From assembly GCA_963786455.1 (NCBI GenBank), contig CAWAZX010000025.1:179350-243349 (forward strand): a DNA stretch of 64,000 nt. Direction: 5' to 3'. The stretch comes from an uncultured Planctomycetota bacterium. GTDB lineage: Bacteria > Planctomycetota > Planctomycetia > Pirellulales > Lacipirellulaceae. The notes below the pieces were generated by a model. The model had not been told where the DNA came from and did no database searches. It was given only the letters and a program-made list of their open reading frames with translations. A program made the translations under genes and the position numbers. This document shows, piece after piece, positions 18,553 to 42,611 of this stretch; the first letter of the stretch is position 1, and each line of letters starts with the position of its first letter.

Positions 18553-18591
18553 CGGAATTTTGATAGCGTGACCTTTGACAGTTCGTCTCGT

Positions 18592-20090: not shown

Positions 20091-20113
20091 AGGTGCCGAT
20101 AAATACAGAATTG

Positions 20114-20200: not shown

Positions 20201-20259
20201 GATGTCAAATCACTTGCGCACTTGGCGTGAGTATTTCCGTGTTTGTAAATTGTCCAACG

Positions 20260-23400: not shown

Positions 23401-23599
23401 TAGATGGCGGCTGTGAGGTCTTCGCGGCGTCGATCAAGGTGTTGGTTCGCGATGCGGATGTCGAATTCTGCGACAGTATTGCAATCGTGATATCGACTAC
23501 TCATCGCCGCCGATGGGGCAAGGATTTCTCTATGTTGGTCGGCAAAGCTATAATTCTGTGACTTCCGTTGGGATTCCATTGCCGCCTCGAACGAACAGG

Positions 23600-25626: not shown

Positions 25627-27548
25627 CTAAGGTTCGGTCACTTCGATCAGGCGATCGACGGCCGAAACGTCGACTTCCTGCTTCCCGCCGCGCGGCCAGT
25701 GCACGGTGACGCCCCGCACCTTGTCATCGCGGCCCAAACCGAACGTGACGGGCAGCTCGACCTGCGAGAGATAGCTCCGCGAGGGCATCACTTGCTGGCG
25801 CAGCGTGCGGTCCTCGAGCTCGACTGTCGATCCAGGCACCGATCGCGTCGCGGTTCGACTTGGTCCCGGTGAGTTTGAATCGCAGCCAATGATGGCCGAG
25901 CTCTTGGTCGTTGCGCAACAGCCGCGGCGGCTGACCGGTGGCGGTCACCAGGACGTCCAGATCGCCGTCGCCGTCGATGTCGGCGTAGCGGCGCCGCGGC
26001 CGACCAGCGGCTTGAACAGATCGGGGCCCGCATTGCTTTTCGGTGACGCGGCAGAAACTCCGTGTCGGCCTGCGGGCCCGCAGTTCCAGAACAGGTGCGG
26101 CGGCTGCTCGTAGTGCTGGCTCGGCTGCACGCGATTGATGTCCTCTTCCAGATGGCCGTTGGCCGTGAGCAGGTCGAGCCGGCCGTCGAGGTCGTAGTCG
26201 AAATAGAACAGGCCGAACGTCAGCGAGGTCCGCGTGCTGGGCCCGAGGCCGGTCGGAATCGCTTCGTCCATGAACTGCATTTCGATCGCCGTAGGAGACA
26301 TAGAGAGCGGTCATCTCGTTGGCGAAGTTGCCGATGGCGATGCCCAGCGCGTCGTCGTCGCGGAAGCGGGCGACGTCGATGCCCATCGCGCCGCGGGCGT
26401 TGCCGTTCATGTCGAAGGCGACGCCGGATTGCAGCGGCGATTTCGCGGAACGTGCCGTCGCCTTCGTTGTGGAACAGGAAGTTTTGCACCGTGTCGTTGG
26501 CGACGACGATGTCGATCCAGCCGTCCGCATCGACGTCGGCGAACGTCGACGCCCAGCGACTTGGCCAGCGGCACGTCGGTGTCGGGATTGCGAATGTGCA
26601 GGCCCGCCTGCTTCGGCGACTTCGCGAAAGCGGCCGTCGCCGTCGTTGCGATAGAGATAGGGGAAGGTGCCCTCGAAGTTCTGCGGCCGGCCGTAGGCCC
26701 GGCCGCCGCCGGTGAGCTGAAAGTTCTGGCCTTCGTCGTATTCGCGCGACCAGTGAACGTAGTTGCAGACGAACAGATCGAGATCGCCGTCGTTGTCGTA
26801 GTCGAACCAGCCGCAGCAGGTGCTCCAATGCGTCGCTCGTCGCCGCCGACGCCGCTCGCTCGGTGACGTCGCGAAATTTGCCGTCGCCCTCGTTGTGGAA
26901 CAGGCGGTTGGTGCCGACCGCGGAGAGGAACACGTCGACGCGCCGTCGTTGTCGTAGTCGCCGACGGCGACGCCCATGCCGTAGAGCGACGACGTCGAGG
27001 CCCGAGCCGGCGGTGACATCTTCGAAGTTGCCCGTGCCGTCGTTGCGGTAGAGAGTCGCCGAGGTGGCGATGAGCCGGGACCGACGACTTCTCCGCTCCC
27101 GCTCCTTGCTCCTTGCTTTCATCCCACGGCCAGTGCGCGAGGCTGTTGACGAACAGCAAGTCTTGGTCGCCGTCGTTGTCGAAGTCGAAAAACGCGCAGC
27201 CGCCGCCCATCGTTTCCGGCAGCAGCTTGCGACCGTTGGCCGCGTTCTCGTGGCGAAACGTGATGCCGGCCTGCTTCGTGACGTCGGTGAAGCGAACGTG
27301 CGGGACCGCGCCGGCCGGCATGCGCGGACCTGCGACTTCCGCCAGCTCCGTTTGCTGGACCGGCTTGTCCTCGGCGCTTCGGCCGAAGCATAGTACACGG
27401 CCGCACCGATCGCGACCGCTGCGACGACGAAGCACGGCCAGCGACCAGCGCAGCGCGACGCCGATGATCGCGTCATCGCGTTCGAGCGTGTCCGGATCGA
27501 ACTTCGTCCGGAACGATTGCGTCTGGTTTCGACGATATCGCGACTCAC
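25627..27548 (-). CDS. TM-anchored CRTAC1-family protein (FG-GAP/VCBS + ASPIC/UnbV); at least 8 frame breaks
   Basis: GTG start at 27548 preceded by GGGAGG. TM segment WPCFVVAAVAIGAAVYY. Also VRFTDVTKQAGITFRHENA...LLPETMGGGCAFFDFDNDGDQDLLFV and LYRNDGTGNFEDVT. UnbV tail: GHHWLRFKLTGTKSNRDAIGA...SRSYLSQVELPVTFGLG...VTVHWPRGGKQEV. Confidence 0.8.
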
Positions 27549-30476
27549 GGTGCACCTCCCGCCGATGATCGACCGCAGCTTCTGCTGCGGCTCTGAGCAC
27601 TGTCGACTCGAGTCCCGGCGCGCCGGGCCGCTGCAGCGGATACTTCACGACGGCCTCGGCCGCGTGATTGGCGGCCGGATACCGCTCGCGGGCCAGTCGT
27701 TCGGCCCGGCCTTGGGCATTGTCGTCCGGCTTGTAGCGCAGGTGCAGCCGCTCGTGCTCGCGCGACTTCTCGGTGTCGCCCAGTTCGGCATACAGGAGCT
27801 GCAGATTGTGATGGGCCGTCACGTTTTCGGAATCGATTGCGAGCGTTCTTCTGGAACGCGTCGACCGCTTCCTGCCAGGCCTGCGCGCGCCTCGTTCGGT
27901 CCGGCCTTGCCGTGCCCGCAGCCGGCCCAGATCGAACAGCGTCTGCCCGAGCAGGTTGATCACTTCGTAATCGAAGCTGAAGTCGAAGCCCGCGCTGCTG
28001 CATATCCGCGCGTGCGGTCCTCGAGCACGCTGCGCAGATTGACGAATCGCTTCGTCAAGCCGGCCCTGCTGGCGATTGATGTCGCCGCTGAGCCAGGCCC
28101 AGGTCCAGCGCGGATAGCCTTCCTCGTCGCGGAACTGCATCCGCACGCTGCAGTGCCGCCACGGCTTCGTCGAGCCGCCCTTCGGCGTTGTACACGCGGG
28201 CCAGATTCATCGGCCCGTCCCAGCGCTTCAGCTGCTTCGACTTGGGTGAATGCTTCGGCGGCCTGCCGCAGCTCCGCCTTGCCCTTCAGCAACAGGCCGA
28301 TGCCGTAGTCGTTCCAGCGCTGCCAAGCGGGAATGTCGCGGTCGGGATTTCGACACGCTGGCCTCGACGCCCGCGACGGGAAACGTCACGCGATCGACGG
28401 CCAGCGTCGTGATCGGCAGCTCGTTGCGATACGGCCTGCCCGGCTACGTGGCCGCGGATTGGCGGTTCGTTCGCCCGAGCGCTTGTGATCTCGTCATTCT
28501 TCTGCGCGACGAAATCCATGTACCGCTGGTCGAACTTGCGGTACTGCAGCTTGACTTCGACCGTCACCGGCGCGTCCAGATCTTCCGGCACGTGCAGTTC
28601 GTAGTGCACGGTCTGGCCGGCGCCCGGCGGAATCTGATGGTTGTACAGCGGCGTGAAAATGTCTTGCGGGTTGCGGCGGTCGATGCGGTTGCCGTCTTTG
28701 TCGAGCATGAACACGTTGACGAAGTGCGCCCAGGGATCGACTTCGTTGCCGCGCTCGGGATCGAGTGCGCCGCTGCGGCCGATCACGCGGTCGCCGGAGG
28801 TCACCGTCACGTCGAGCCAGACTTCGTTCGAGTCGGCCGTGCCCTGCGTGAACAGGTGACCCAGCTTGAGCGTGCGGATCACCGTTTCCAGCAGGTACTT
28901 CTTGCCCGGCTCAAGCGTCGGCACCTCCGGCCGCAGCGGCGCGATCAGCTTGCCGTCGATCTCGCCGCCCTCGCGCACGCCGAACATATCGACGCGCATC
29001 ACGCCTTTCAGGAACTCCTGATGCGCGGCGATCGACGTCCGGCCGGTCGCGCAGCCAGGCGACGCCCGTGTTGGCCGCCGGGAACAGGTGGTTGTGGACG
29101 CTCAGCTCGGTCGGCGCCGGCGAAAAGCTTCGCGCCGAAATCGCCCGAGGGCTTGAGCGGCATGTGGCAGCCGCTGCAGTTCGCCTCCGCCTTGGGCGGA
29201 TAGTAAAAGCTGCGCGCCCCGTGGCCCGAAACGCCGCTCAGCAGGAACGGATCGTAGTGGTTCTGCCCGCGCAGGAATTCCTTGTAGTGGTTCAGCTCCA
29301 GCGGCAGGTGCACCTTGTGGCAGGTCGAGCAGAACTCGGCCGTGCGATGGAAGTCCTTCAGGAACGTCTTCTTGTGGAACGCCGGCTTGGCCTTCACGAG
29401 CTGGTTGTTGACCCACTGCAGCAACGGCGTTGTCGCTGAAGGCGAACGGGTAATGCAGCGGCTCTTCGATCGTGTAGTCGGCGTTGCCGCGCGTGCTGTT
29501 GACGTGGGTGATCGCGTGGCACACCGTGCAGGTGATGCCGGCGTGGGCCGTGGGATGGCTGACGTGTCGAACTTCGGGTCGTCGAACGCGCCGCTGAAGA
29601 ACGGCACCGGGTCGTGGCAGCCGGCACACCAGCGCGACGCCTGCACGTTGCCGTCGCGCTTCAGCGACACCTCGCGCGTTTCGGTGACGCTGGCCAGGTA
29701 CGGCGGGTTGTTGAACGAGCTGAAGCGGTGCACGCTGTCGCTCCACTGGGCATGCACGTCGGCGTGGCACTTCTGGCAGTACTGGTCGTTCATCAGCGCT
29801 GTCGGCCGGGATGAAATTGCCGGTGGCCGTGCGGGCCAGCGACGGCTCAAAATACTTGCACGCCCGATTCCGGCCCGATCGCGTACCACTGCCGCGGGTC
29901 TTGCGCGTGGAACCAGACCATGCCCAGCACGACCGCGCCGACGAATGCCGGCATAGCCCAGTCCGAGCCGCCACTTGATCCGCGGCCCGGCCAGCCGATG
30001 CAGCCAATACAGCCAGGCGGCCAGCCAGCGGACAGGCCACATGCAGCCAGTATACAGTGTTGCGGGCCAGCGGTTGCCGCAGATCGAACCCGCCCATGCG
30101 CATCAGCAGCACGCCCGTGACCAGCACGGCGATCGAGACGGCAAACAGCGCGTAGCCGATGCGTACCGCGCGGCGGTTGCGCCGATTCCTCGCGACAGCC
30201 AGATGCAGCGATGCCGAACACGACAAACGGCACAACCAGCACGAGGCCCAGCACCAGGTGGCCCAGGAACATGTACTGGTAGAAATAGTTCTGATACGTG
30301 CGGCCGGTCGACCACTCCACGGCGGTGACCGCTGCAAGATATGCCGAGTTTGCACCCAGCAGGGCCACAAGCGCAAAGATGAAGTACAGCAGCTTGCGCA
30401 GGCGCGGTCCGACCGCGCGCACGTATTTTTTCGGCGGTGGGCTCGAAGTACCAGGGCTAAAAGTTTCGACCGACAT
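27545..30476 (-). CDS. membrane-anchored pentaheme c-type cytochrome fused to a TPR C-terminal region; at least 10 frame breaks
   Basis: N-terminal TM helices (LLYFIFALVALLGANSAYLAAV, YMFLGHLVLGLVLVVPFVVFGI). Five CxxCH motifs: CQKCH, CAGCH, CTVCH, CSTCH, CSGCH. A middle domain follows (LGHLFTQGTADSNEVWLDVTV...), then TPR-like repeats (AWQEAVDAFQK..., NLQLLYAELGD). The candidate stop TGA at 27545-27547 overlaps the downstream GTG (GTGA). Confidence 0.75.
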
Positions 30477-30642
30477 AATAATCAACGCGGCTTGACCGAG
30501 CCAGAAAAGTGTCGTGCCCACGGCCGGCGTTCGTAGCGCCAACTGTGGAAGCGTAAGCGAAATCGTAAGACGTGGCCGTGCCCTCCAAATCATGGTGGGC
30601 TTCCGCAGAATGCGCGGCTCGATACACAAAAAAAGAATTGAG

Positions 30643-31035
30643 CTACGTGCGCGGGGGATGATCAATTCGCGAAGGAAAGCCCCTCGCTGTTCGAGCTTTG
30701 AGACATGTCAAGATCGCATCTGGAAGAGTCAGCGTCCGCAGTGACGCCGAGCCAGCAAGAAGGGCCGATTCGGGCGCCGCGAAGGAGAATCCGGGGGCTG
30801 CCGGAGTTGCCGGATGGTCTGGCGCTTGCCGACAATGGGGGCCGTTGCAAGGCACTCGCTGCGAGGAATCGGGAGAGCTTTCAGCCCGCCGCGCGTGTAC
30901 GGCGTTCGAGAACTTCGAAGCGCTTTGCTCAGATGATAAGGAGGTACCCGAACCGGTCGAATGTGCTAGCCAATCACCGCACGACGCAAACGCCGTCGAC
31001 GTGCCAGCCACAACGTTCAAGGCCAGCAGCTGCAT
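30643..31035 (-). CDS. small secreted Cys-motif protein, copy A (unassigned family)
   Basis: Intact ORF. Signal-like MQLLALNVVAGTSTAFA, then SCGDWLAH...VPCNGPHCRQAPDHP...GFPSRIDHPPRT-stop. It aligns without gaps to copy B over a 113-aa mature length. It lies directly upstream of, and co-directional with, the pentaheme cytochrome gene. Confidence 0.7.
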   Translation of the reverse strand: MQLLALNVVAGTSTAFASCGDWLAHSTGSGTSLSSEQSASKFSNAVHARRAESSPDSSQRVPCNGPHCRQAPDHPATPAAPGFSFAAPESALLAGSASLRTLTLPDAILTCLKARTARGFPSRIDHPPRT

Positions 31036-31276
31036 CCCGACCAAAAATATGGCGCAGGATCGTCACGTACAACGAGCCCAAATTTAGGACAACGAACTAG
31101 TGAGCGGAGCCAAAAAGCTCCGGTATTCGAACGCACATACAGCTTGTTTTCAGACTAGTCCTCTAGCCGGAAACTGTCAATCAATGGCTACCCGGCGGCG
31201 ATTGTAAAACCGGCTGAAATTACAGGCGATTTTGAGTAACGCGATCAGTTCTGTCGCGGCGGAAGCGCAAAAATAC

Positions 31277-31304
31277 TTGCATTTCCTTGTGTACCGAGTA
31301 TCCT
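31277..31304 (+). promoter_or_regulatory. possible sigma70-like promoter for copy B
   Basis: TTGCAT - 16 nt - TATCCT ends 29 nt before the ATG at 31333, followed by a strong SD GGGGGGAGGG. Planctomycete promoter consensus is poorly defined, so this is weak. Confidence 0.25.
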
Positions 31305-31332
31305 ATCGGCTAGGTCCGCGGGGGGAGGGAAA

Positions 31333-31836
31333 ATGATGGGCAACCCGTTTGTCCCGCGTGCCTCGAATATTTCTCGTCTACATGTTTGGGTCTCTATGGT
31401 CGTCTTGGCCCTACATCAACGCTGTTCGGCTGTAGCGTGCGGACTTATTGGTCTCGTTGTGCTGCAGTTCGTAGCCGTCTCCCGAGCGGACGCAACCTGT
31501 GGTGATTGGCTGGCGGTGCCGGGTGAACGCCAGATGTTGGCCCATCAGAGGCCAATGGCCCACGGCGAAACAACGAATCCGTCGACTGCCAGTCAACGCG
31601 ATTCGACGCCGCTTTCAAGATCCAAGCCGTGCAACGGTCCCTATTGTCGGAGCGCACCGTTTCATCCGTCTCCCAATACGCCGGTGAGCATTACGTATCA
31701 TTCTGATCGGCTTGCCGTTTTTGTCTGTCTCGCGGGTGAGGATGCGTTGCGACTTGAATCGAAATTCTATCGCGAGCCGAACGTGTGCGCTGCTCCCGGT
31801 TTTAAGGCGCGCATCGAGCATCCTCCTCGCGTCTAA
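31333..31836 (+). CDS. small secreted Cys-motif protein, copy B (unassigned family)
   Basis: Intact ORF with a strong SD. It has a long N-terminal region + hydrophobic segment ...LIGLVVLQFVAVSRADA, then TCGDWLAV...KPCNGPYCRSAPFHP...GFKARIEHPPRV-stop. Confidence 0.7.
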   Translation: MMGNPFVPRASNISRLHVWVSMVVLALHQRCSAVACGLIGLVVLQFVAVSRADATCGDWLAVPGERQMLAHQRPMAHGETTNPSTASQRDSTPLSRSKPCNGPYCRSAPFHPSPNTPVSITYHSDRLAVFVCLAGEDALRLESKFYREPNVCAAPGFKARIEHPPRV

Positions 31837-32095
31837 GCGATTGTTTCTTGCTCGACCAAGTGGTTTGCCGCTTGTCGCTCGATGGTTGCGCTGCGCCGTG
31901 GCATTCGCCTAATGAATCTGCGTGGCGCTTCTGGTTGCCCGCTGCGTATTTGACAGTGAGCGGCGTGTAGATGAAAGAAGCGGCAGCGATCGCCCGCAAA
32001 AAAAAAGTAGGTTTGTCCGCGAGCCGTCTGCTCGCGGCGGCCATCCGTGTTTGTATCCCCCGGCAATTAACGGATTCAGGACGTGAGGATCACCG

Positions 32096-33202
32096 ATGCT
32101 TACCAAACGCCTTCAACGAGGCTTCACGCTGGTTGAACTGCTCGTTGTGATCGCGATTATTGGAACGTTGGTCGCACTTTTATTACCGGCCGTTCAAGCG
32201 GCGCGGGAAGCAGCGCGGCGGAGCAACTGCCAGAATAACCTCCGGCAAATTGGCCTGGCAATTCAAAACCACGCGAACGCTTTCGGCGTGTTTCCTACTG
32301 GTGGTGCGGAAGTCAATCCGAAGATCGAGCACTACATTGCCAACGGAAAGCCATTTGGTCCCAACAAGCAAGGGCTTGGTTGGGCCTACCAGATTCTGCC
32401 TTATCTTGAGGAAGGCACGCTCCAAATTCTGGTGAAGCAGGATGAACTTCAAGCGGCGGCCATTCCGCTCTATGTGTGTCCGTCTCGGCGCACCGTGTCG
32501 TCGGCCAAGGTCGAGCGCGGAAAACCTCGGCGGGAAGCCCGTGTTTCTGATCGATTACGCGGCGGCGCAGCCGTGCACGGTGGAATGCCCAGCGGGCAGT
32601 GCCGGTTGTTCCACTCCGCCGCGCGCTACAACCCGCGAGACGCGGTACCGATCAGCCCGGCCAACTATGAAATCAACTGGCCGTCGCTTTGGGGAGGCAA
32701 GAATCCGAATTTCCGGCTGCAGGCGCACAACCAGGTGTACGACGGCGTCATCGTCCGGTCTGCCTGGCGCCGAAACGATCCGCTGTTTACGCATGGAGCG
32801 CCGGGTGGTGGTGAGTTTCTGAGCGGCGTGCCCGCGCCGACAACCTTCGCCAAGATCATTGACGGTACCAGCAAAACGTTCATGCTCGGCGAAAAGTACG
32901 TTCGTTCGGACAGCTACCAAGGAGGGGGCTCGTCGGACGATCACGGCTGGAGCGAAGGATGGGATACCGACGTCGTTCGCTCCACGTGTTTCCAACCCTA
33001 TCCGGACAGCGACGGCTACCAGTTTCAGTCGCTGGGGGCGGACGACATTTTCGGGCACGAGAAGGATGTGGTTTATTTTGGATCGGCGCACTCCGGCGGT
33101 TTCCACGGCATCTTTGCCGACGGATCGATTCAAACGTTGAGCTACGACATCGACGTCGTGGTTTTCAATTCACTCGCCACGCGCAGGACAGGAAGTGGTT
33201 GA
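32096..33202 (+). CDS. DUF1559 protein with a prepilin-type N-terminal cleavage/methylation domain (planctomycete pseudopilin-like)
   Basis: Intact. [48 protein letters not shown], plus the C-terminal H-x9-DG motif [13 protein letters not shown]. Confidence 0.9.
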
Positions 33203-33288
33203 TGACGAGTCGCTTAACTAATGTGGCGCACTGACGCCGGTCATTCTACAAACCCAAATCCAATACCTAAACTAAATCGAACGACAAC

Positions 33289-35337
33289 ATGCTTTACACC
33301 AATCAAATTGCATTGACTCGCAAAATGAATTTCAATACCCAGCGCAATCGCCTGAAATGCCCGCGCCGCATGGGCTTGGCGGTGCTGGTACTGATCCTCG
33401 CTTATTCCACGAAGAGTGCGCAAGGGGTTGAAACAGTCGCCCGTATTTGGGATGAGCAACTGCTGCACGCGATCAGTCTCGATACGGCGCGGCCGACAGT
33501 GCACGCCCGCAATTTGTATCACATGTCGGCTGCGATGTACGACGCCTGGGCCGCCTACGATAACACGGCCCGCGGATCTATATTCAAGGGAAAAACCACA
33601 GCAGTGAACATCGAGCAGGCGCGCAACGAAGCAATCAGCCATGCCGCGTTCAATATCATCTTGCACCGCTTTCACGACGGGCCTGCCGGCGTCGGCCCAG
33701 GCCGAGTACAGTCGCTTGCCGACATTCGCCAGCAGATGACGGCGCTTGGCTACAATCCGGACAACAAATCCACAGTGGGTGACTCTCCGGCCGCGTTGGG
33801 TAATCGCATAGCACAGGCCGTGATTAACCATGGTCTTGCAGATGGTGCCAACGAAGTGAACCGATACGCGACGCCCGCAGGGCAGTTCGCACGTGTGAAC
33901 CAGCCGCTAACGTTCGACCTGCCTGGTAACACGATGGTCGACAAGAACCGGTGGCAACCGCTGCATTTTCTCGGCGGCCGGATCGACCAATTTGGTCGGC
34001 CGATCAATGAATCGACGCAAGTGCACCTGTCGCCGTTTTGGGGGCAGGTGACACCATTCGCGATTACGTCCGCTGATCGCAGTGCCAACGGCGTGTACCA
34101 CGACCAAGGCACGCCGCGGCGGCTCGGCGGGGCGACGGACGCGGCGTTCAAGCAGAGAGACGCGTTGGAGTTCCTACGCATCTCTTCGCACCTGGACCCC
34201 AATGATAGTGAGATGATCGACATCTCGCCTGCTACACGCGGCAACACTCCCAATGCGCCATTCACAGAAAGTTACGCGCAGGCCGGTTACGCTTTGAATC
34301 CATTTACCGGCCAACCTTATACGCCGCAAATAGTGAAGCACGGCGATTTCGGCCGCGTTGTGGCCGAGTTTTGGGCCGACGGCCCGCGTTCGACCGCGCC
34401 ACCCGGACACTGGAATGAAATCGCCAACGACGTTTCCGACAAGATGGACTCGCTGGGAATTGCGAAACGGATTGGTGGAACCGGCCCTGTTATCAGTGAC
34501 TTGGAGTGGGACGTCAAAAAGTATCTCGCGCTGAACGGCGGATTGCACGACGCAGCCGTCGCCGCCTGGAACCACAAGGGAGTATACGATTCGGCGCGCC
34601 CAATTTCATTCATTCGCTACATGGGTCAGCTCGGGCAATCGAGTGATCCGAACCTCAAGGTCGATCTTGGCGGCGGCAACCTGGTGGATACGTACCATCC
34701 CGACGGTTTGCCGCTCGAGCCGGGTCTGGTGGAAGTAATCACACCACAAACCACAGCGGCGGGCCAACGGCACGAGCAGCTTGCCGGCCATGAGGGCAAG
34801 GTGGCCATTCGCGCTTGGCAGGGGGCTATCGACGGCATTGCCCCGTTTGACGACCCGTCCGAAATCAGCGGCGTCAATTGGATCACGGCCGAAACGTGGA
34901 TGCCGTATCAGTTGGCCGGCTTCGTTACGCCGCCGTTCGCCGGTTATGTGTCGGGACACTCGACTTTCAGCCGCACGGGCGCGGAAGTGATGGCGCTGTT
35001 TACGGGCAGTGAGTTCTTTCCCGGCGGGATCTTTGAATATGAGATTCCGATCGGAGCGGGCTTGGATTTCGAATATGGCCCGTCGGCCGCGATGAAGTTG
35101 CAGTACGCTACTTATTTCGACGCCTCGGATCAGGCGTCGATTTCGCGGATTTACGGAGGCATTCACCCGCCGGCGGATGATTTTCCCGGTCGACGGATCG
35201 GGAACATGGTGGGCCCGGACGCGTTTCATCGGTCCATGTTGTTGTTTGCAGGGGTGCCAGAACCCGCGAGCGCGCTTCTTTTTGCTGTTGCTGCAAGTTT
35301 GATGTGCGGTCTGCGAGTGCGGCGTTTCGAATCGTAG
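33289..35337 (+). CDS. PAP2-superfamily / vanadium-dependent haloperoxidase-like protein with a C-terminal PEP-CTERM sorting signal
   Basis: Intact 682 aa (an alternative start is MNFNTQ at 33325). All three PAP2 motifs are present: KGVYDSARP (Kx6RP), VSGHSTF (SGH) and SRIYGGIHPPAD (SRx5Hx3D). The N-terminal part ARIWDEQLLHAISLDTARPTVHARNLYHMSAAMYDAW is typical of bacterial VHPO-like proteins. The C-terminal end is VPEPASALLFAVAASLMCGLRVRRFES. Confidence 0.8.
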   Translation: MLYTNQIALTRKMNFNTQRNRLKCPRRMGLAVLVLILAYSTKSAQGVETVARIWDEQLLHAISLDTARPTVHARNLYHMSAAMYDAWAAYDNTARGSIFKGKTTAVNIEQARNEAISHAAFNIILHRFHDGPAGVGPGRVQSLADIRQQMTALGYNPDNKSTVGDSPAALGNRIAQAVINHGLADGANEVNRYATPAGQFARVNQPLTFDLPGNTMVDKNRWQPLHFLGGRIDQFGRPINESTQVHLSPFWGQVTPFAITSADRSANGVYHDQGTPRRLGGATDAAFKQRDALEFLRISSHLDPNDSEMIDISPATRGNTPNAPFTESYAQAGYALNPFTGQPYTPQIVKHGDFGRVVAEFWADGPRSTAPPGHWNEIANDVSDKMDSLGIAKRIGGTGPVISDLEWDVKKYLALNGGLHDAAVAAWNHKGVYDSARPISFIRYMGQLGQSSDPNLKVDLGGGNLVDTYHPDGLPLEPGLVEVITPQTTAAGQRHEQLAGHEGKVAIRAWQGAIDGIAPFDDPSEISGVNWITAETWMPYQLAGFVTPPFAGYVSGHSTFSRTGAEVMALFTGSEFFPGGIFEYEIPIGAGLDFEYGPSAAMKLQYATYFDASDQASISRIYGGIHPPADDFPGRRIGNMVGPDAFHRSMLLFAGVPEPASALLFAVAASLMCGLRVRRFES

Positions 35338-35352
35338 CAAAGCAATCTATCG

Positions 35353-37258
35353 ATGTCATCGCAACGGCTAGTGTGTAGACTTCTCCACGAAATAGCTGCT
35401 TTTCTGGCAGCGGTGGTGGTCGTTTGCGCTTGTGGTATGCCGGCGATCGCCGTGTTCTCGGATGTCACGGCAAGTGCCGGGATCAATCATTTGCAGCACG
35501 TTGGCAATGCGCCGGGGCGGGCCTGTTCCGCACCGGCGGCGCGGCCGCGGCCGATTACGACAACGACGGGTTGACTGATCTGTTCGTGACACGCCTCAAC
35601 GCGCGCCCGCTCTTGTACCGCAACCTGGGGAACGGCACGTTTCAGGACGTCGCCGTGACGGCCGGATTCACTTCCAGCCTTCCTGCCAACGGTGTGGCCT
35701 GGGGCGACATCGAGAACGACGGTGACAAGGATTTGTACGTCACGTCATCGGGCGGGACGCGGTTTTATTTGTACGTCAATAACGGCAATGGCACGTTCAG
35801 CGAACAGGCAACTCGCGCGGAGCCGCTATTTCCGGCGTGTTCCGCTACGGACAGAGTGCGACCTTCGGCGACTACGACGGCGACGGCTATCTGGATATTC
35901 ACACCAATGATTGGGCCACCGACAGCGCGGTAAGCGCGTCGCGCTTGTTGCGCAATCTTGGTGCGGCGAATCCGGGACATTTCGAGGACGTGACCGCAGC
36001 TGCTGGTCTCAATGTTTTTCGCCCCTCGCGGTTTGCGGACGGCAGCACCGATTCCAACGCTTATCGCTACTCGTCGACGTTCACGGACTTAGACCGCGAC
36101 GGCCATCCCGATCTCGCGATTGCAGCCGATTTCCTCACGAGCCAGGTCTTTTGGAACAACGGTGATGGCACGTTTACCGATGGCACTGCCGCGGCGGGCG
36201 TCGGCACCGACGAGGACGGTATGGGCAGCGCCATCGGCGACTACGACGGCGACGGTCGGCTCGATTGGTTCGTCTCCGCGCTGGTCGATGTGCCCGGCGG
36301 TCCTGCGCCACACAGCGGCAACCGCCTCTTTCGCAACAACGGCAATCGCACATTTACCGATCAGACCGACGTGGCAGGCGTGCGAAATTCCGGTTGGTCC
36401 TGGGGAACCACCTTTCTCGACCACGACAACGACCGCGACCTGGATCTGTTTGTTACTAACGGATGGGATACGACGACCAACGATCAGTCACGCCTGTTCC
36501 AAAATGACGCCGGGGTATTTGCTGACGTTTCGAATGCCGCCGGCGTCACGGACATGAAATTCGGGCGGGGGCTGGTCAGCTTTGATTATGACAACGACGG
36601 TGACCTCGATGTCTACATTGCAAATCATGGAGCGCAGCCCATTCTCTACCGCAACGACGGCGGTAACGCGAACGACTGGCTAAAGCTCAAATTGCAAGGA
36701 ACGGTTTCAAACCGAGATGGTCTAGGTGCGCTTGTTACGGTCGATCCCGACACGATGACGACGGGCGATGAAATGGTCCGCGAATTGAACGGCGGCAGCA
36801 ATTTCCTCGGGCACAATGAGTTGCTTGTTCACGTCGGCCTGGGTCCGAGCGCTGCGAACATCGACTTGATTACGGTCGCGTGGCCCAGCGGCATCGTACA
36901 GCAACTTGCGAATGTTTCGGCGAATCAGGTGTTGAACGTGATCGAAATCACCGGGCCGGCGCCGCTAGAGGGCGACTACAACGATGACCTCGTGGTCGAT
37001 GCGGCCGACTATGTGATCTGGCGCACTCAATCGGGTGAGACGGGTACCGGACTCTCGGCGGACGGCAACAACGACCAAACGGTCAATCAGCTTGATTACG
37101 ATCTTTGGAAGGCGAATTTTGGGGCGTCGGTAGGCGGTTTTGCATCCGCGGCCCAGCTTGAACTCGTGCCCGAGCCGTCGGCGGCGCTGCTGATTGTTGT
37201 CGGATCGGTAGTCGCGAGGAATCTTGTGATGTCACAACGTGTACGACGTACTGCGTAA
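35353..37258 (+). CDS. FG-GAP/VCBS repeat protein with a dockerin-like repeat pair and PEP-CTERM anchor; 2 frame breaks near the 5' end
   Basis: DYDNDGLTDLFVT, GDIENDGDKDLYV, GDYDGDGYLDIH, TDLDRDGHPDLAI, GDYDGDGRLDWFV and FDYDNDGDLDVYI. A UnbV-like stretch reads NDWLKLKLQGTVSNRDGLGA. The dockerin-like part is DYNDDLVVDAADYVIWR...DGNNDQTVNQLDYDLWKANFG. The C-terminal end is VPEPSAALLIVVGSVVARNL...RVRR. Confidence 0.8.
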
Positions 37259-37279
37259 TTCTATTTGGGAGGGCCTTTT

Positions 37280-38287
37280 ATGTTGTCTCGCAAAAGACGA
37301 GTGCGAGGTTTTACTCTGGTTGAATTGCTAGTCGTCATTGCGATTATCGGAATCCTGGTGGCCCTGTTGCTGCCGGCGATTCAAGCGGCGCGCGAGGCGG
37401 CCCGGCGATCGAGCTGTATCAACAATCTTCGCCAGATGGGTCTGGCGATGCTGAACTACGAGTCGAGCTACAGAGTCTTTCCACCATCGGACGTGTTGGT
37501 GCCCAACACGAAAACGGGTTTGCTGACGTCCTCTTTGGGATTATCCGTCCATGCACGGCTGCTGCCGTTCGTGGAAGAGGCTGGTCTTCGCAGTTTGGTG
37601 AATTTTAGCGCCGCTTATGACAATGCATCCAACGACACTGCACGGATGACACGCGTTGCCATGTTCCTGTGCCCTTCGGACGGCGGTGAAAACGCGCTTT
37701 CTACGCATCTGAAAGGGGCAGCGACTAGTTACCAGGCCAATCAAGGTTCCGGCGTAGTCTGGAGCATTCCTTCGAATCCAAGCGATCCCAACTACGCGCT
37801 CGGGCCGCCCAACGGCGTGTTGATTCGCAACGGCGGCGTGAAGACCGGCGACGTGATCGACGGCATGAGCCACACGGCCGCCTTCTCTGAGCGGGTTGTC
37901 GGCGACGGTGACCAAGGCACGGTCACCGAAGCGAGCGACACATTTGCACCAGGCTCCACGCATCCGGGAGTCGAGAAGGCCTACCAGGATTGTCTGGCCG
38001 TCAACATCAGCGACCTCGCGAGGCAGGGATATTCCGACGTTGGTTTTCCTTGGATTCAGTCGTACCACAGCGCGACTATTTATTACCACAACATGCCGCC
38101 TAACGGCCGGTCCTGCATGTATCCGCCGGGCCAGATCATGACCACCGCCAGCAGCCGGCACAGTGGCGGCGTGAACGTGATGATGTGCGACGGCTCGGCT
38201 CGTTTCGTGTCCAACGATGTCAGCCGGCCCACCTGGCAAGCGCTGGGCAGCCGCAATGGCGAAGAGATCATCAACGAGCAGTTTTGA
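37280..38287 (+). CDS. DUF1559 protein with a prepilin-type N-terminal methylation domain
   Basis: Intact, with GGGAGGG upstream of the ATG at 37280. [44 protein letters not shown], plus [13 protein letters not shown] (H-x9-DG). Confidence 0.9.
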
Positions 38288-38342
38288 CGTGCAGCGCAGC
38301 CATGGGAATGAGGGGAGTTCCGCTACGAGATGGGGTCGTGAC

Positions 38343-38733
38343 ATGTCGAGAGGCAAATCGCAAAACCCCATGTTCCAATGGCTGCTTGCTGCACTTTTGC
38401 TGCAATCGGTCGGATGCGGTGGCGGCGGCGTGCCTGCTACCGAAGAGGCGGTGCGCACGCGCACTAACCGCGGCGCTGGATGCCTGGAAGGCGGGCCGCA
38501 CGGCCGAGGAAATGCGGCAGGAAAGCCCCGAAGTCGTTGTTGGAGATACGGACTGGAAGCTTGGCCGGCGGCTTGTGGGTTACCAAGTTGGCACGGGCAT
38601 GTTTGACGGCAAGAACCTCCGCGTTCCTGTGACGCTGACGATTGCCCAACCGCCGCGCGGCAACCGCCAGATCGTAGTAAACTACATCGTCGGTACGCAG
38701 CCTGTGGTTACGCTGTTCCGCGATGGAGAGTAA
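38343..38733 (+). CDS. small lipoprotein following DUF1559; 1 frame break near 38455
   Basis: MSRGKSQNPMFQWLLAALLLQSVGCGGGG (lipobox L-Q-S-V-G-C). After a slip it continues ARALTAALDAWKAGRTAEEMRQESPEVVVGDTDWKLGRRLVGYQV...VVNYIVGTQPVVTLFRDGE. Confidence 0.6.
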
Positions 38734-38758
38734 AACCATTCACAAGCGAGGATTGATT

Positions 38759-40096
38759 ATGAAACGCTTTCTTGTCGCTTCGGCGTTCATGTTCACGGTG
38801 CTGATTTCGGCGGCAGCGACGCGGGCCGCGGATCCGCCATCCGATACACCCAAGGCGGTGCCCGCCACACGGCCCGAAATGAAACAGGCGCTCGAAGCGC
38901 TCAAAGATCGCACGCCACGCCTCCCACTTCCGGAACGTGGGGAGGGCGGCGTCAACAACGGCCGCATGCGGGCCCAGTATTTGCCCGAGGGATGGGGCGG
39001 CGGGGGCGGACGCGGCGGGCGCGATCGTCAACGAGGACGCGACGGCCGGCGCGGCTCCGGCCGATTTGGTCAGGATCCGAATTCGACGATGGATTTCGCG
39101 TTCACCACCTCACTGTTTTGGATCGTGTCGCGGGGTAACAATTGCCATTACTGTCTGGGACACCAGGAACTGAAACTCCGCGGGGCTGGTTTGAACGACG
39201 ACACGATTGCATCGCTCGACAGCGATTGGTCCGTATTCGAACCACGCCAGCAGGCCGCGCTTGCCTACACTCGAAAACTCACACTCGAGCCGCAGCTGAT
39301 CGGCGACAAGGACATCGCCGCCCTGAAATCGCTGTTCACCGATGCCGAAATCATCGAGCTAACATTCAATATCGCGCGATTCAATGCCACCAACCGCTGG
39401 ACCGACGGCATGGGTATCCCGCAGGACCAACGATTCAGTGAGGAAGATTCATCGCTCGATACTCCGACGAATGAGAAATTCCAGAACACGGTGAGTGTCG
39501 CCACGCCGCAGACGCGCGCTTCACGACCCGGGCCGCCGAGCATTCTCGAAGCCATGAAGGCAATGGCTACATGCCATAACCGCGCGGCCCGCGTCGAATT
39601 GTCGAGCGAAGAAAAAGCCGTCGCTGCGCTGGCCGGCGTTGTCGAACAGCGTGAGCCACGCAACTGGGAACGTGCCATGGCCCAACTCGCAGGCAATGGC
39701 CCGTCGCAGGTGGCCACACTGAACGCGATCATTACGGACGACCATCTCAGCCCGCGGCTCAAGGCGGAATTGTTTTTGATATCCGCGGCCAATAATCGCG
39801 CGTGGTACGCCGTGGGGCATGCCGCTTGCCGATTGCACAGTCTGGGGGCCAGTCACGAAGATATGGCGGGGTTGATCAGCAACGAGCCGAAGGGCGAAGC
39901 GGCGGCCGCCTACCGGCTCGCCGCCCAGCTCACCGCGAATCCGCATCTGATCACGGACGCGGACATTGCGCAAGTGCGCGAACATTTCAGCGATGCGGAA
40001 ACGGCGCAGATCGTGCAGGTAATTTGCATGGCCAACATGTTTGACCGCTTTACCGAGGCGCTTGGCCTGCCGCTGGAAGAGGGGCTTTGCCATTAA
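38759..40096 (+). CDS. secreted carboxymuconolactone-decarboxylase (AhpD-like) family protein with a double domain
   Basis: Intact. Signal peptide MKRFLVASAFMFTVLISAAATRA. LFWIVSRGNNCHYCLGHQE (CxxC of the AhpD fold) and NIARFNATNRWTDGMGIP. The second half is degenerate (AVGHAACRLHS). An Arg/Gly-rich linker lies at 38990-39070. Confidence 0.75.
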   Translation: MKRFLVASAFMFTVLISAAATRAADPPSDTPKAVPATRPEMKQALEALKDRTPRLPLPERGEGGVNNGRMRAQYLPEGWGGGGGRGGRDRQRGRDGRRGSGRFGQDPNSTMDFAFTTSLFWIVSRGNNCHYCLGHQELKLRGAGLNDDTIASLDSDWSVFEPRQQAALAYTRKLTLEPQLIGDKDIAALKSLFTDAEIIELTFNIARFNATNRWTDGMGIPQDQRFSEEDSSLDTPTNEKFQNTVSVATPQTRASRPGPPSILEAMKAMATCHNRAARVELSSEEKAVAALAGVVEQREPRNWERAMAQLAGNGPSQVATLNAIITDDHLSPRLKAELFLISAANNRAWYAVGHAACRLHSLGASHEDMAGLISNEPKGEAAAAYRLAAQLTANPHLITDADIAQVREHFSDAETAQIVQVICMANMFDRFTEALGLPLEEGLCH

Positions 40097-40250
40097 TGAC
40101 GGGCGACTGGGTGGCACTTCCCTGACTTCGGCGAGCTCAGTCGAGTCGAGCCCGCGGCGAAGGGCCTGGTTTGTTCACAAAGTGTTGTTGACCACGCCCA
40201 TTGCCAGAGGCTCTGGGCGTGCCACCCAAGTGCGGATCTAATCTAATCCC

Positions 40251-42611
40251 ATGAAACATGCGAAATCCCTGCTTTCTGTGTATGGGATATCCGTCTTTGC
40301 TCTGCTACTGGGATGTTCGAACGACTCCCAGCCGTTGCGAAGTGCCGCGTCGAAAGGTGATATAACCGCGGACACGGCGGCCAGCGCCGACGTTCCGGAA
40401 GCGAAGTCCGGTTATCGACGGAGAGATGTAGATCCACCCATCGAGATCTCCCAGGCCGATCGTGAGGGACACAATCGGATGCTGCGTGAGCTGGCAGCGC
40501 TGCGCGAGCGCGAATCGCGCACCAACGCCTACTACGGCACCGTGCGCTTGGACGAAGCTCAGCAGTTGCTCAAGTTGGCGGTAGCCGAGGAAGATCGGCT
40601 CAAGATGCTCTTGAGATTGACGTTCGCCCAGATGGATTTAGGGTTGGAAGCCGAGGCGCTCCAGCACATGGTCCCGGCCGTGGAGCAAGTGGAGAACACC
40701 AGCAATCGAATCCGGCCCGAGGCGGCCGCGGAACTACATTTTCTGTTCGGTATGGTTCATCTGCGACATGGTGAGACGCAAAACTGCTGCCTGCTGCACA
40801 ACAAGGACAGTTGTTTGTTGCCGATCCGCGGCGGCGGGATCCACACGCGGCAGGACGGAGCTCGTGCCGCAATTTCACATTTCGAGAAGGTCGTGGCCGT
40901 TGCGTCAAGGGGCTCCGAGCGTTATCTGGAAGCGATCTGGTTGTGGAACCTGGCTGCGATGAACCTGGGCGAATTTCCAGAGGGCGTGCCGGCCGAGCAC
41001 CGCATGGAGCCCGCGCGATTCCTGTCGCGCGAGAAGTTTCCGCGGTTCATGAATATTGCCGGCGACTTGGGACTCGACACCAATAGCCTGTGCGGGAGCG
41101 TGGTGGCGGAGGATTTCAACAATGACGGATATCTCGATTTGATGGTGAGCACGTGGGACGTGCGCGAGCCGCTGAAGTTTTATGTGAACAATGGCGCGGG
41201 CAAATTCGACGACCGCACCAGTGCCGCGAGCCTCGACGGAATGGCCGGCGGGCTGAACATGGTGCAGGCCGATTACAACAACGACGGTCGAATCGACGTG
41301 TACATTCTGCGCGGCGCATGGTTGTTCGGCGATGGTAGCCATCCCTGTTCGCTGTTGCGCAACAACGGCGACGGCACGTTCACGGACGTGACGTTTGCGG
41401 CCGGCCTGGCCGAGGAAAGTTACCCCGGTCAAACAGCCGCGTGGGCGGACTACGATTTGGACGGACTGGTGGACCTGTTTGTTGCCGGCGAAGAGGGCCC
41501 GAACAATCGGGCACCGTGCCGGCTGTTTCACAATAACGGGAACGGCACGTTCACCAACGTGGCCCGAGCTGCCGGCGTGGAAACCCATCAACTGACCAAA
41601 GGCTCTTCGTGGGGCGACTACAACAACGACCGATATCCCGATCTGTATGTGTCGAACTTGAGGAGCCCGCCTCCTTTGGACGGCCGCAACCGGCTCTACC
41701 GCAACAACGGTGATGGAACGTTCACTGACGTTGCGCGCGAAGCCGGGGTATTGGACGTGGATTCTTCGTTCCCCACGTGGTTTTGGGACTACAACAACGA
41801 CGGCGTGCTGGATCTGTTCGTCTCGGCGTATCACGCCAACACCGCACAGGTTGCCCGCTACTATCTTGGTCAGACTATTGAGACCGGCATGCCGCGCGTG
41901 TTTCGCGGAACGCCTGAGGGCAAGTTCATCGAGGCGACCAAGGAGCTGGGGCTCGACGAGCCGACGCTGGTGATGGGATCGAATTTCGGCGATCTGAACA
42001 ACGACGGCTGGCTCGATATGTACCTGGGCACGGGCAGCCCGGACTACAAGATGATCATTCCGAACAAGCTGTACCTGAATCACGAGGGGCAGAGGTTTGC
42101 GGACGTGAGCGAAGCGGCCGGCATGGCCCATCTTCAGAAGGGCCACGGTGTGGCGTTCGCCGATTTGGACGCGGACGGCGATCAAGACGTTTTCATGCAG
42201 ATGGGCGGTGCCTATCCAGTCGACAAATACGTCGACGCCCTCTTTGAGAATCCCGGCTTTGGCAACAACTTTATTGCCGTCGAGCTGGTGGGCGTCGAGT
42301 CGAATCGCTTCGGAGTGGGATCACGGATTCGCGTCGACGTGGAAGAAGACGGCAAGACGCGATCCATTTATCGCTGGGTCAACAGCGGCGGCAGCTTTGG
42401 TTGCAACTCGCTGCGTCAGCAAATCGGCGTGGGGAAGGCCGCGCGGGTCAAACGCTTAGAAGTGTTCTGGCCGAAATCCAATGAAACGCAGGTGTTCGCC
42501 GACTTGCCGACAAACGGCGTTATTCGCGTCACGGAAGGCGCGAAGGAGTATGTCGAAACGAACCTTCGAGCGACGGAGTTTGCTCGACCCCGGCCAGGTG
42601 GGGAACACTAA
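40251..42611 (+). CDS. CRTAC1-family lipoprotein (TPR-like N-terminal domain, FG-GAP/VCBS repeats, ASPIC/UnbV C-terminal domain)
   Basis: Intact 786 aa. Lipobox FALLLGCSND. Also AEDFNNDGYLDLMVS, ADYNNDGRIDVYIL, LLRNNGDGTFTDVTF, ADYDLDGLVDLFV, GDYNNDRYPDLYV, WDYNNDGVLDLFV, GDLNNDGWLDMYL and ADLDADGDQDVFM. UnbV part: NNFIAVELVGVESNRFGVGSRIRV...NSGGSFGCNSLRQQIGVG...LEVFWP. Confidence 0.9.
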   Translation: MKHAKSLLSVYGISVFALLLGCSNDSQPLRSAASKGDITADTAASADVPEAKSGYRRRDVDPPIEISQADREGHNRMLRELAALRERESRTNAYYGTVRLDEAQQLLKLAVAEEDRLKMLLRLTFAQMDLGLEAEALQHMVPAVEQVENTSNRIRPEAAAELHFLFGMVHLRHGETQNCCLLHNKDSCLLPIRGGGIHTRQDGARAAISHFEKVVAVASRGSERYLEAIWLWNLAAMNLGEFPEGVPAEHRMEPARFLSREKFPRFMNIAGDLGLDTNSLCGSVVAEDFNNDGYLDLMVSTWDVREPLKFYVNNGAGKFDDRTSAASLDGMAGGLNMVQADYNNDGRIDVYILRGAWLFGDGSHPCSLLRNNGDGTFTDVTFAAGLAEESYPGQTAAWADYDLDGLVDLFVAGEEGPNNRAPCRLFHNNGNGTFTNVARAAGVETHQLTKGSSWGDYNNDRYPDLYVSNLRSPPPLDGRNRLYRNNGDGTFTDVAREAGVLDVDSSFPTWFWDYNNDGVLDLFVSAYHANTAQVARYYLGQTIETGMPRVFRGTPEGKFIEATKELGLDEPTLVMGSNFGDLNNDGWLDMYLGTGSPDYKMIIPNKLYLNHEGQRFADVSEAAGMAHLQKGHGVAFADLDADGDQDVFMQMGGAYPVDKYVDALFENPGFGNNFIAVELVGVESNRFGVGSRIRVDVEEDGKTRSIYRWVNSGGSFGCNSLRQQIGVGKAARVKRLEVFWPKSNETQVFADLPTNGVIRVTEGAKEYVETNLRATEFARPRPGGEH

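Follow-up and report, generated by a model that had tools for sequence, protein, structure and literature searches.

Planctomycete genomes are rich in expanded exported families without an assigned role, among them the DUF1559, CRTAC1/ASPIC-UnbV and tetratricopeptide repeat (TPR)-multihaem cytochrome families, and we know of no function for any bacterial member of the CRTAC1 family. Membrane-anchored haem proteins able to link the quinone pool with periplasmic enzymes are described in the NapC/NrfH/CymA quinol dehydrogenases, the membrane tri-haem quinol peroxidase (QPO) and MsrQ-MsrP, where a haem-b membrane protein feeds a periplasmic repair enzyme. Here we analyse a 64,000-nucleotide stretch of DNA (the window) from an uncultured planctomycete of the Lacipirellulaceae (GenBank assembly GCA_963786455.1, contig CAWAZX010000025.1, positions 179,350 to 243,349), in which two divergent gene arms, each headed by a small cysteine-containing protein (the Cys protein), bring members of these families together. 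The two arms very probably make up one conserved functional module with a new leader family. The module is fully exported and conserved across Pirellulales planctomycetes; its three-gene core is formed by the Cys protein, a membrane cytochrome fused to TPRs (cytochrome-TPR) and a translationally coupled CRTAC1-type protein, and its second arm, led by a Cys paralogue, contains DUF1559 proteins, a PAP2/vanadium-haloperoxidase (VHPO)-like enzyme, one or two CRTAC1-type propellers, a lipoprotein and an AhpD-like CxxC protein. In the window, the components are laid out as follows:

25627..27548, minus strand: CRTAC1-type protein of the left arm, with an N-terminal transmembrane (TM) anchor, an FG-GAP_3 β-propeller and UnbV_ASPIC; frame-broken, with Pfam hits on the fragments
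27545..~30476, minus strand: membrane cytochrome-TPR, with 5 TM helices, five CxxCH motifs, a β-sandwich and TPRs; frame-broken
30643..31044, minus strand: Cys-protein A (CysA), 133 aa, with a signal peptide, SCGDWLAH, PCNGPHCRQAP and C-terminal RIDHPPRT
31045..31332, no strand: divergent intergenic spacer of 288 nt separating CysA and CysB
31333..31836, plus strand: Cys-protein B (CysB), 167 aa by the longest open reading frame (ORF), with a likely start at 31396; TCGDWLA, PCNGPYCRSAP and C-terminal RIEHPPRV
32096..33202, plus strand: DUF1559 pseudopilin 1, opening with a prepilin N-methylation leader and closing with an H-X9-DG C-terminus (PF07596 4.8e-39, PF07963, TIGR04294)
33289..35337, plus strand: PAP2/vanadium-haloperoxidase-like exported protein with a PEP-CTERM tail (DUF6851 2.8e-12, VCPO_2nd, PAP2 motifs)
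35424..37258, plus strand: CRTAC1-type protein with a PEP-CTERM-like tail (FG-GAP_3 and UnbV_ASPIC); one frame break near 35.8 kb
37265..38287, plus strand: DUF1559 pseudopilin 2 (PF07596 1.7e-51, TIGR04294 3.3e-10), 78% identical to the orthologue in locus L016
~38343..38733, plus strand: small lipoprotein of ~120-130 aa, with the lipobox LLQSVGC; one frame break and no family match
38723..40096, plus strand: exported double AhpD/CMD-like protein with the motif CHYCLGH (TIGR01926 76.1 bits; CMD weak)
40251..42611, plus strand: CRTAC1-type lipoprotein, 786 aa, with a helical N-terminal domain, an FG-GAP_3 propeller and UnbV_ASPIC

The ORF listing and family scans bear out the gene content and layout put forward in a first-pass annotation of this DNA, which had described two back-to-back operons, each opened by a Cys protein and each ending in a CRTAC1-type protein. 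The GTGA stop/start overlap between the cytochrome-TPR and CRTAC1 genes that it reported can be read directly in the window sequence at 27548-27545, and every product does carry an export or anchoring signal, be it a signal peptide, a lipobox (LLQSVGC, ALLLGC), an N_methyl prepilin leader, a TM helix or a PEP-CTERM tail. The pentahaem character and membrane anchor of the left-arm cytochrome hold on intact orthologues (L016, by alignment), the window copy being frame-broken. The PEP-CTERM protein described as 'FG-GAP/dockerin' has the FG-GAP part but also bears UnbV_ASPIC and is hence itself of the CRTAC1 type; together, the left and right arms encode three CRTAC1-type propellers. The divergent spacer, given as 297 bp, measures 288 nt between the longest ORFs. 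Consensus scans of the region for promoters and terminators gave no more sites than shuffled sequence and no promoter-like site inside the 288-nt spacer, and Rfam gave no match between 25.0 and 43.5 kb of the window.

Conserved synteny beyond chance, on which the proposal of a linked system had been made to depend, was found strongly in a search for the Cys motif that is blind to neighbouring genes. Scanning one genome per species (596 Gb) with the back-translated pattern A[ST]CGDWLAH recovered 28 stretches, each encoding a true member of the Cys family; an earlier genome scan with the narrower peptide pattern CN[GS]P[YH]CRSA gave no relatives. All 28 loci are labelled Planctomycetota and those with names belong almost exclusively to the Pirellulales (Pirellulaceae, Lacipirellulaceae, Thermoguttaceae), with carriers in Stieleria, Roseimaritima, Rhodopirellula, Rubripirellula, Novipirellula, Neorhodopirellula, Roseiconus, Lacipirellulaceae and Thermoguttaceae; several are metagenome-assembled genomes (MAGs) with broad labels only (Planctomycetaceae, Planctomycetales, Planctomycetota). 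One contig, labelled Phycisphaera sp. RhM (L011), encodes a Cys protein nearly identical to those of Stieleria (L004, L008, L015) and may be mis-binned or reflect a recent transfer.

In 21 of the 28 loci an orthologue of the cytochrome-TPR (390-440 bits to a window fragment) comes after the Cys gene on the same strand, and in 13 of those, where the 8-kb block reaches far enough, CRTAC1 comes next. Six cases show an orthologous DUF1559 gene after the Cys gene, then either the lipoprotein and AhpD-like genes or the VCPO-like and FG-GAP/UnbV genes; of the other loci, two break off at the Cys gene and L028 has neighbours of another kind. Altogether, orthologous partners are present in 25 of the 28 motif-found loci, and they are specific orthologues, scoring from hundreds to more than 1000 bits.

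A complementary set of 80 metagenome loci was anchored on the cytochrome (51-79% identical). Where enough downstream DNA was available, CRTAC1 follows the cytochrome-TPR in 50 of 58 loci, and a Cys leader can be recognised ahead of the cytochrome gene in 24 of the 62 informative loci, mainly in closer relatives and including divergent forms (AGCSG..., PCxGPxCR, EPPPK); loci lacking the leader have porin-like or other genes upstream. The association between Cys and CRTAC1 presence around the cytochrome (18/1/19/6) is suggestive, not strong. In Roseimaritima ulvae (L032), the full triad of Cys protein, cytochrome and CRTAC1 stands between unrelated flanks. From the frequencies of the Cys leader and of CRTAC1, and from the solo and triad contexts, the cytochrome-TPR and CRTAC1 are therefore the older and broader pair and the Cys leader a clade-specific third component. 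As for solitary cytochromes, a Thalassoglobus sp. MAG (Planctomycetales; L031:10001-12868) encodes a cytochrome-TPR 73% identical to the L016 query, with no Cys gene upstream, no CRTAC1 downstream and MutS on the opposite strand, and at L047:5477-7825 what by eye is a heavy-metal P-type ATPase lies directly upstream of a cytochrome-TPR that has neither a Cys gene nor CRTAC1.

The linkage of the two arms was reached from three independent anchors, namely the Cys motif, the cytochrome and the AhpD-like protein. The arms lie head-to-head in the window, in L016 and L025 (Lacipirellulaceae), in L051 and in the JGI contigs P0004, P0008 and P0012, and head-to-tail in L022, L029, L060, L115, L116 and L117. 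In L115 (Pirellulales MAG GCA_040903105.1), a single strand encodes the Cys protein, cytochrome, CRTAC1, DUF1559, lipoprotein and AhpD-like protein in this order; L116 has the same string minus the lipoprotein gene, none being detected there, and L117 has the cytochrome and CRTAC1 followed, further on, by Cys, DUF1559, VCPO-like, FG-GAP/UnbV and AhpD-like genes. The loci L022 (CRTAC1, DUF1559, VCPO-like), L029 (CRTAC1, VCPO-like) and L060 (VCPO-like, DUF1559, cytochrome, CRTAC1) are likewise collinear, and in L060 the linkage is seen at a cytochrome identity as low as 58%. Starting from the AhpD-like protein, four contexts were examined: in three of them (L115-L117) the cytochrome pair is present, upstream and on the same strand, whereas the context of L114 is interrupted by transposases. 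Linkage that outlasts inversion and reshuffling amid different flanks is a classical signature of functional coupling, and because the arms recur both head-to-head and head-to-tail we regard them as one module and not as a chance adjacency. The first-pass proposal of one module with a shared leader gene thus stands, with linkage in at least two gene orders. Its mirror arrangement does not stand as a conserved feature, being confined to the Lacipirellulaceae-like lineage, outside of which the arms are head-to-tail or apart. We also observed that, in the 262-kb JGI contig of L116, the module is flanked by a 1679-aa TPR and CRTAC1 protein and a 1278-aa double-CRTAC1 protein (1-2733 and 16525-20361).

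CysA and CysB are paralogues (34% identity, E 1e-16) and the only two copies in the window. A word-indexed search found 13 relatives and a HMMER profile search over 1.84 billion representatives found 716 matches at E<=1e-3 (128 at E<=1e-10), counted as clusters at 50% identity. Members are ~120-180 aa long and share a Sec-type signal peptide ending in A-x-A and followed directly by (S/T)CGDWLAH, then a low-complexity linker, PCxGPxCRxAP...P.P, a short hydrophobic strand and a terminal G(F/Y)PxR(I/V)(D/E)(H/R)PPR-x. Among 155 family-sized hits, the N-terminal motif is found in 153, CxGxxC in 146 and the terminal PP[RKQE] in 136; the modal number of cysteines is three, the three invariant ones lying in (S/T)CGDW and PCxGPxC. 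Set against the lipobox pattern [LVI][ASTVI][GAS]C, the family keeps an invariant cysteine directly after the signal peptide but frequently has a polar or charged residue at position -3 and, in roughly one member in three, Thr at position -1; a Tat-like motif occurs in just 9 of 153 leaders, and the family does not qualify as a Tat substrate. Pfam-A gave no match at E<=0.1 for 46 family members besides two single ones at chance level, NCBIfam gave none, and the best profile match in the PDB had an E-value of 0.35.

An AlphaFold2 (AF2) model of the Cys protein, built on a 46-sequence alignment, has a mean predicted local distance difference test (pLDDT) score of 68 and is mostly disordered, with the signal-peptide helix and two 4-residue strands, which suggests that the protein folds on a partner. 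In L115, CRTAC1 (4837-7233) is ~160 aa longer than usual; the additional stretch at its C-terminus contains SCGNYL and SGPSC, finishes with FRPPRSV, has no signal peptide and scores 16.6 bits against the hidden Markov model (HMM) of the Cys family. This tail looks like a fused, degenerate Cys module; though a single case, the apparent fusion points to a physical association of the Cys protein with CRTAC1. In a neighbour-joining tree, CysA groups with the cytochrome-linked copies of L016 and L025. A clean split of cytochrome-linked from DUF1559-linked copies was considered and found only inside the Lacipirellulaceae-like group, not overall, and the 10-stretch hit P0109 was discarded as spurious, being a proline-rich Ig-repeat protein. 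In Roseiconus nitratireducens (L028:3436-7639), neither the cytochrome nor DUF1559 comes after the Cys gene; downstream of it lie genes for a membrane protein rich in His, for a YtkA/FixH-like lipoprotein and for what by eye is a polyferredoxin membrane protein of the FixG/CcoG type, a neighbourhood with a possible link to metal (copper) handling.

The cytochrome-TPR is intact in L016, where it spans 1007 aa by the longest ORF (~940-1015 aa among orthologues) and comprises five hydrophobic helices, five CxxCH motifs, a β-sandwich and TPRs. The CxxCH motifs, at residues 243, 293, 326, 392 and 443 of the L016 protein, are all invariant in 22 orthologues, which makes it a multihaem cytochrome c. 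Also invariant are H75 and H93 in predicted TM2 and H147 and H161 in predicted TM4, spaced 17 and 13 residues apart; these four TM histidines are predicted to bind 2 b-haems. The protein does not reach the curated thresholds of the NrfA, NrfB, NapC-NirT or DmsE families: Cytochrome_C554 scores 24.5 bits over residues 243-331 only, and NrfB, NNT and decahaem families give E-values of 0.004-0.4. A PDB search yielded only weak stretches of NrfA c552 and MccSep, and Foldseek with the model found TPR scaffolds only, the TPR domain resembling the peptide- and protein-binding scaffolds MamA, PilF and OGT. Among the best 120 of >7,700 hits at E<=1e-10, drawn from several Pirellulales genera and one Planctomycetales (Thalassoglobus) MAG, identities are 70-92%.

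Its partner belongs to the CRTAC1/ASPIC-UnbV family, as do the 40251-42611 and 35837-37258 products: FG-GAP_3 blades followed by UnbV_ASPIC are found in these, in the left-arm fragments and in the intact L016 orthologue, where the TM helix of the left-type CRTAC1 is also seen. The 4-nt stop/start overlap of cytochrome and CRTAC1 recurs in the window, L016, L115, L116 and the P0004 contig. Two further ideas on the propeller proteins did not hold up. Derivation of the helical N-terminus of the 786-aa CRTAC1 from the TPR of the cytochrome, as a detached copy, was not supported (BLASTP E 0.048, no Pfam TPR hit), and the vicinal Cys-Cys seen in CRTAC1 of the left arm is not conserved as a redox feature, since Ser or Ala stands there in most orthologues.

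In the right arm, both DUF1559/SBP_bac_10 proteins are assigned by PF07963, PF07596, TIGR02532 and TIGR04294. The VCPO-like protein scores 47.7 bits with DUF6851 (cut-off 27) and 26.6 with VCPO_2nd (cut-off 27), bears all three PAP2/VHPO motifs (KX6RP, SGH and SRX5HX3D, as KGVYDSARP, SGH and SRIYGGIHPPAD) and, as the 33289-35337 product, ends in a PEP-CTERM segment (TIGR02595, 16.8 against a cut-off of 16). The tail of the 35837-37258 product, VPEPSAALLIVVGSVV...RVRR, was recognised by eye and hydrophobicity and gives no PEP-CTERM HMM hit at E<=0.01. Orthologues of the small lipoprotein occupy the matching position in the P0004 contig, L007, L016, L017, L027 and L115, and the 786-aa CRTAC1 lipoprotein has an orthologue of 786 aa at the matching position in the P0004 contig. 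The AhpD-like protein, with a CxxC at residue 141, scores 76.1 with TIGR01926 (cut-off 81.8) and 17.5 with CMD (cut-off 23), and has 615 homologues, carrying the JGI name 'alkylhydroperoxidase family enzyme'.

Two observations concern this last protein. One homologue, P0369 (622 aa; on an ENA contig of 163,665 bp), lists both CMD (PF02627) and UnbV_ASPIC (PF07593) in its precomputed Pfam annotation; it represents either a fusion of an AhpD-like protein with CRTAC1 or a gene call in which two genes were merged. In L027, the next gene after that of the AhpD-like protein (4221-5429) encodes 402 aa with EF-hands and a thioredoxin-fold domain of the T4_deiodinase/AhpC-TSA/Redoxin type; judged by its domains, this would be an AhpD-plus-peroxiredoxin-like pairing within an exported arm, and it fits a redox or peroxide role better than adhesion.

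The first-pass annotation had also set the few frame breaks of the right arm against their high frequency elsewhere. The low count (about three) is real; the biological meaning is not, break positions differing between related assemblies. Both left-arm genes show at least 6 frame changes when aligned to intact orthologues, and tblastn with the intact L016 orthologue spans residues 2-622 of the left-arm CRTAC1 across at least 5 frame changes. Two ENA assemblies (L001 and L002), ~91% identical to the window and with 'contig_N' names typical of long-read assemblers, are also frame-broken, at other positions: L002 holds cytochrome residues 11-534 in one frame, where the window breaks three times, and in L001 the VCPO-like gene, intact in the window, is broken four times. 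Orthologues from short-read MAGs and isolate genomes are intact. Because the positions differ in this way, the breaks are indel errors, an assembly artefact and neither pseudogenisation nor a signal of selection; the higher GC content of the left arm (65.7% versus 58-60% elsewhere) possibly aggravated them.

The flanks of the module seem unrelated to it and encode S9 peptidases, a PSCyt/PSD1 protein, a prenyltransferase-like protein, DUF1028, GH127 and GSDH. On the left, these include a typical planctomycete PSCyt1/PSCyt2/PSD1 (DUF1549/DUF1553) cytochrome protein (20824-22773, minus strand) and a prenyltransferase/squalene-hopene-cyclase-repeat protein (23513-24757), both seemingly unrelated to the module. 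The adjacent 282-aa membrane protein (24770-25618, plus strand) has no family match; a 268-aa gene is present at the equivalent site beside the CRTAC1 of the P0004 contig, and the protein may be a conserved neighbour or an extra member of the module.

As to what the module does, envelope redox chemistry is the most likely function, favoured because the second arm carries thiol and peroxide signatures: the CxxCxxxH of the AhpD-like protein, the PAP2/VHPO site and the EF-hand, deiodinase/AhpC-TSA/Redoxin protein of L027. The basic N-terminus and five helices of the cytochrome would place its haem domain outside the membrane, and one histidine per helix (TM2, TM4) would lie near each membrane face, as in transmembrane b cytochromes with two haems. 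Together with the five c-haems, two b-haems could then form a seven-haem electron wire from the menaquinol/quinone pool, or the cytoplasmic face, to the periplasm. There, the electrons might serve propeller- and AhpD/VCPO-type enzymes acting on peroxides, hypohalites or oxidised thiols in the envelope, and the largely disordered Cys proteins, with one paralogue for each arm, might be thiol- or metal-bearing adaptors whose short conserved motifs mediate docking. Taken as a whole, the module together with this haem-wire mechanism is the explanation that we favour by a little; the specific redox or peroxide chemistry, read from domain content, is tentative and somewhat more apt to prove wrong than right. 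A long shot within the same framework is that the Cys proteins serve as small subunits in propeller oxidoreductases of a new, haem-wired class, with the Cys-Gly-Asp-Trp and CxGPxC motifs forming a protein-derived cofactor or a thiolate metal centre; this periplasmic centre would be held by the CRTAC1 propeller and joined to the quinone pool by the seven-haem membrane subunit. If true, this would provide a first biochemical function for bacterial CRTAC1/ASPIC-UnbV proteins and explain the strong conservation of the cytochrome-TPR.

Several findings weigh against a single redox module. Operon structure is inferred solely from strand, gaps and overlaps; the Cys leader is missing at 38 of the 62 informative cytochrome-TPR loci, mostly the more distant ones, and the Cys gene of L028 adjoins YtkA/FixH-like genes instead; and the Cys proteins keep their C-terminal motif even in L027, an arm with neither TPR nor CRTAC1. 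The AhpD-like and VCPO-like matches fall just short of curated cut-offs. For the proposed b-haem domain, residues 1-200 of the cytochrome have no Pfam or NCBIfam match and AF2 confidence is just 55-65, and the c-haem domain is left unmodelled (pLDDT below 50). The arms are also separable, which would suit the idea that only the Cys protein, cytochrome-TPR and CRTAC1 form a unit, with the DUF1559/VCPO/AhpD arm a separate system that has its own Cys paralogue and lies nearby in some lineages: the core stands alone in R. ulvae (L032) and most Pirellulaceae loci, many of them with 4-6 kb of unrelated upstream DNA, and the DUF1559-lipoprotein-AhpD arms of L007 and L017 have no cytochrome in the visible 2-3 kb upstream. 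We nevertheless consider a separation of this kind unlikely, given that the linkage recurs in at least two gene orders and down to the cytochrome identity seen in L060, that most AhpD-anchored contexts (3/4) hold the cytochrome pair, and that the same, otherwise rare, leader family heads both arms. DUF1559 and CRTAC1-type genes are numerous in planctomycete genomes, and the P0004 contig shares even the flanking genes of the window, as chance adjacency of abundant families or synteny among close relatives would predict; with specific orthologous partners at 25 of the 28 motif-found loci and linkage persisting through rearrangement and different flanks, this explanation is effectively refuted.

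The remaining alternatives concern function. A role of the Cys proteins as metallochaperones in the periplasm, loading a metal such as Cu(I) from three thiolates into the exported enzymes of each arm, with the cytochrome as a metal reductase, would account for three invariant cysteines with Asp/His in an otherwise disordered protein, and for the YtkA/FixH-like and, by eye, FixG-like polyferredoxin genes downstream of the Cys gene in L028 and the apparent heavy-metal ATPase upstream of the solitary cytochrome-TPR in L047. These are single, anecdotal contexts, however; no known metal-binding fold or motif was matched and the module contains no recognised copper protein, and we hold this distinctly unlikely. 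By analogy with methylamine dehydrogenase (MADH) and quinohaemoprotein amine dehydrogenase (QHNDH), which are well established, one might instead envisage a new enzyme of the quinoprotein kind. Its small subunit would be the Cys protein, bearing thioether cross-links or a cofactor derived from its own Cys, Trp and Asp; the propeller would hold this subunit, which would be wired to the haems. Cys, Asp and Trp are indeed adjacent and invariant or nearly so (CGDW), and a small subunit, a β-propeller and c-type haems are encoded together, but the Cys proteins do not resemble MauA or QhpC in sequence, none of the loci examined contains a maturase of the radical-SAM, MauG or flavoprotein type, the FG-GAP propeller is of the Ca-binding type and not a known quinoprotein type, and AF2 predicts disorder; we give this version little credence. 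Equally improbable to us is an adhesive or surface structure built of pseudopilins, integrin-like propellers anchored by PEP-CTERM or lipid and a dockerin-like segment, with Cys proteins as linkers and the cytochrome incidental. The prepilin leaders of the DUF1559 proteins, the integrin-type FG-GAP propellers and the PEP-CTERM anchors would all agree with it. Yet the gene most tightly coupled to the Cys leader and CRTAC1 is that of the cytochrome, which is highly conserved and translationally coupled, and the AhpD-like, Prx-like and VCPO-like proteins are redox enzymes and not adhesins.

The module ties specific DUF1559, CRTAC1 and TPR-multihaem cytochrome proteins to each other, to a new family of small proteins with sharp motifs and to enzymes of the peroxide/thiol type. 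Because the cytochrome-TPR is so similar over its best 120 hits, a strongly constrained and probably central envelope function is implied, and cultured, genetically tractable carriers, such as R. ulvae with its intact triad, make the hypothesis directly testable.

Compared with the quinol-linked haem systems, the module cytochrome shares periplasmic CxxCH haems and paired invariant TM histidines as in di-haem b proteins, but it has no family-level match to them (hits to NrfB, NapC and DmsE are all at E>0.01) and its order of 5TM, 5 CxxCH, β-sandwich and TPR is unique; its partner is an FG-GAP propeller and not a Mo or haem enzyme, and quinol use is putative here. The AhpD-like protein resembles the AhpD of AhpC/AhpD (TIGR01926) in its CxxCxxxH motif (CHYCLGH), its score of 76 bits and the peroxiredoxin-fold gene next to it in L027, and differs in being exported, in its duplicated domain (~445 aa), in its setting among pseudopilin, lipoprotein and CRTAC1 genes and in having no evident lipoamide or thioredoxin electron source. 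With vanadium haloperoxidases and PAP2 acid phosphatases, the VCPO-like protein shares the three active-site motifs and the VCPO_2nd helical bundle (just under cut-off); unlike them, it has an N-terminal DUF6851 and a PEP-CTERM anchor, and its activity is putative. Eukaryotic CRTAC1/ASPIC and bacterial CRTAC1 proteins have the same FG-GAP_3 propeller and C-terminal UnbV_ASPIC as those of the module, which are anchored by a membrane helix, a lipid or PEP-CTERM, whereas eukaryotic CRTAC1 has an EGF-like domain. The nearest literature precedent is found in other bacteria, where CRTAC1-family genes sit between genes for hydrazine-synthase-like haem proteins (PMC12758564); in contrast to that case, the haem partner here is the cytochrome-TPR and not a homologue of HZS alpha or beta-gamma. 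Quinohaemoprotein amine dehydrogenase and methylamine dehydrogenase follow a similar subunit logic, with a small Cys/Trp protein, a propeller and a c-type cytochrome encoded together, but homology and maturase genes are lacking, the module Cys protein is Sec-exported and predicted to be disordered, and the propeller is of another class.

Searches of Pfam, NCBIfam, the PDB and a searchable library of the literature returned no description of the Cys family, of the cytochrome-TPR/CRTAC1 pair or of the combined module. The two DUF1559 proteins are ordinary members of the planctomycete DUF1559 (SBP_bac_10) family, down to the H-X9-DG C-terminus, but their orthologues keep a fixed position after the Cys leader, which gives a context-free, massively expanded family a defined set of partners. 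We thus rate the module as categorically new as a system, assembled from domains that are individually known, which biochemistry may later place as a distant variant of the quinol-linked periplasmic peroxidase or repair systems.

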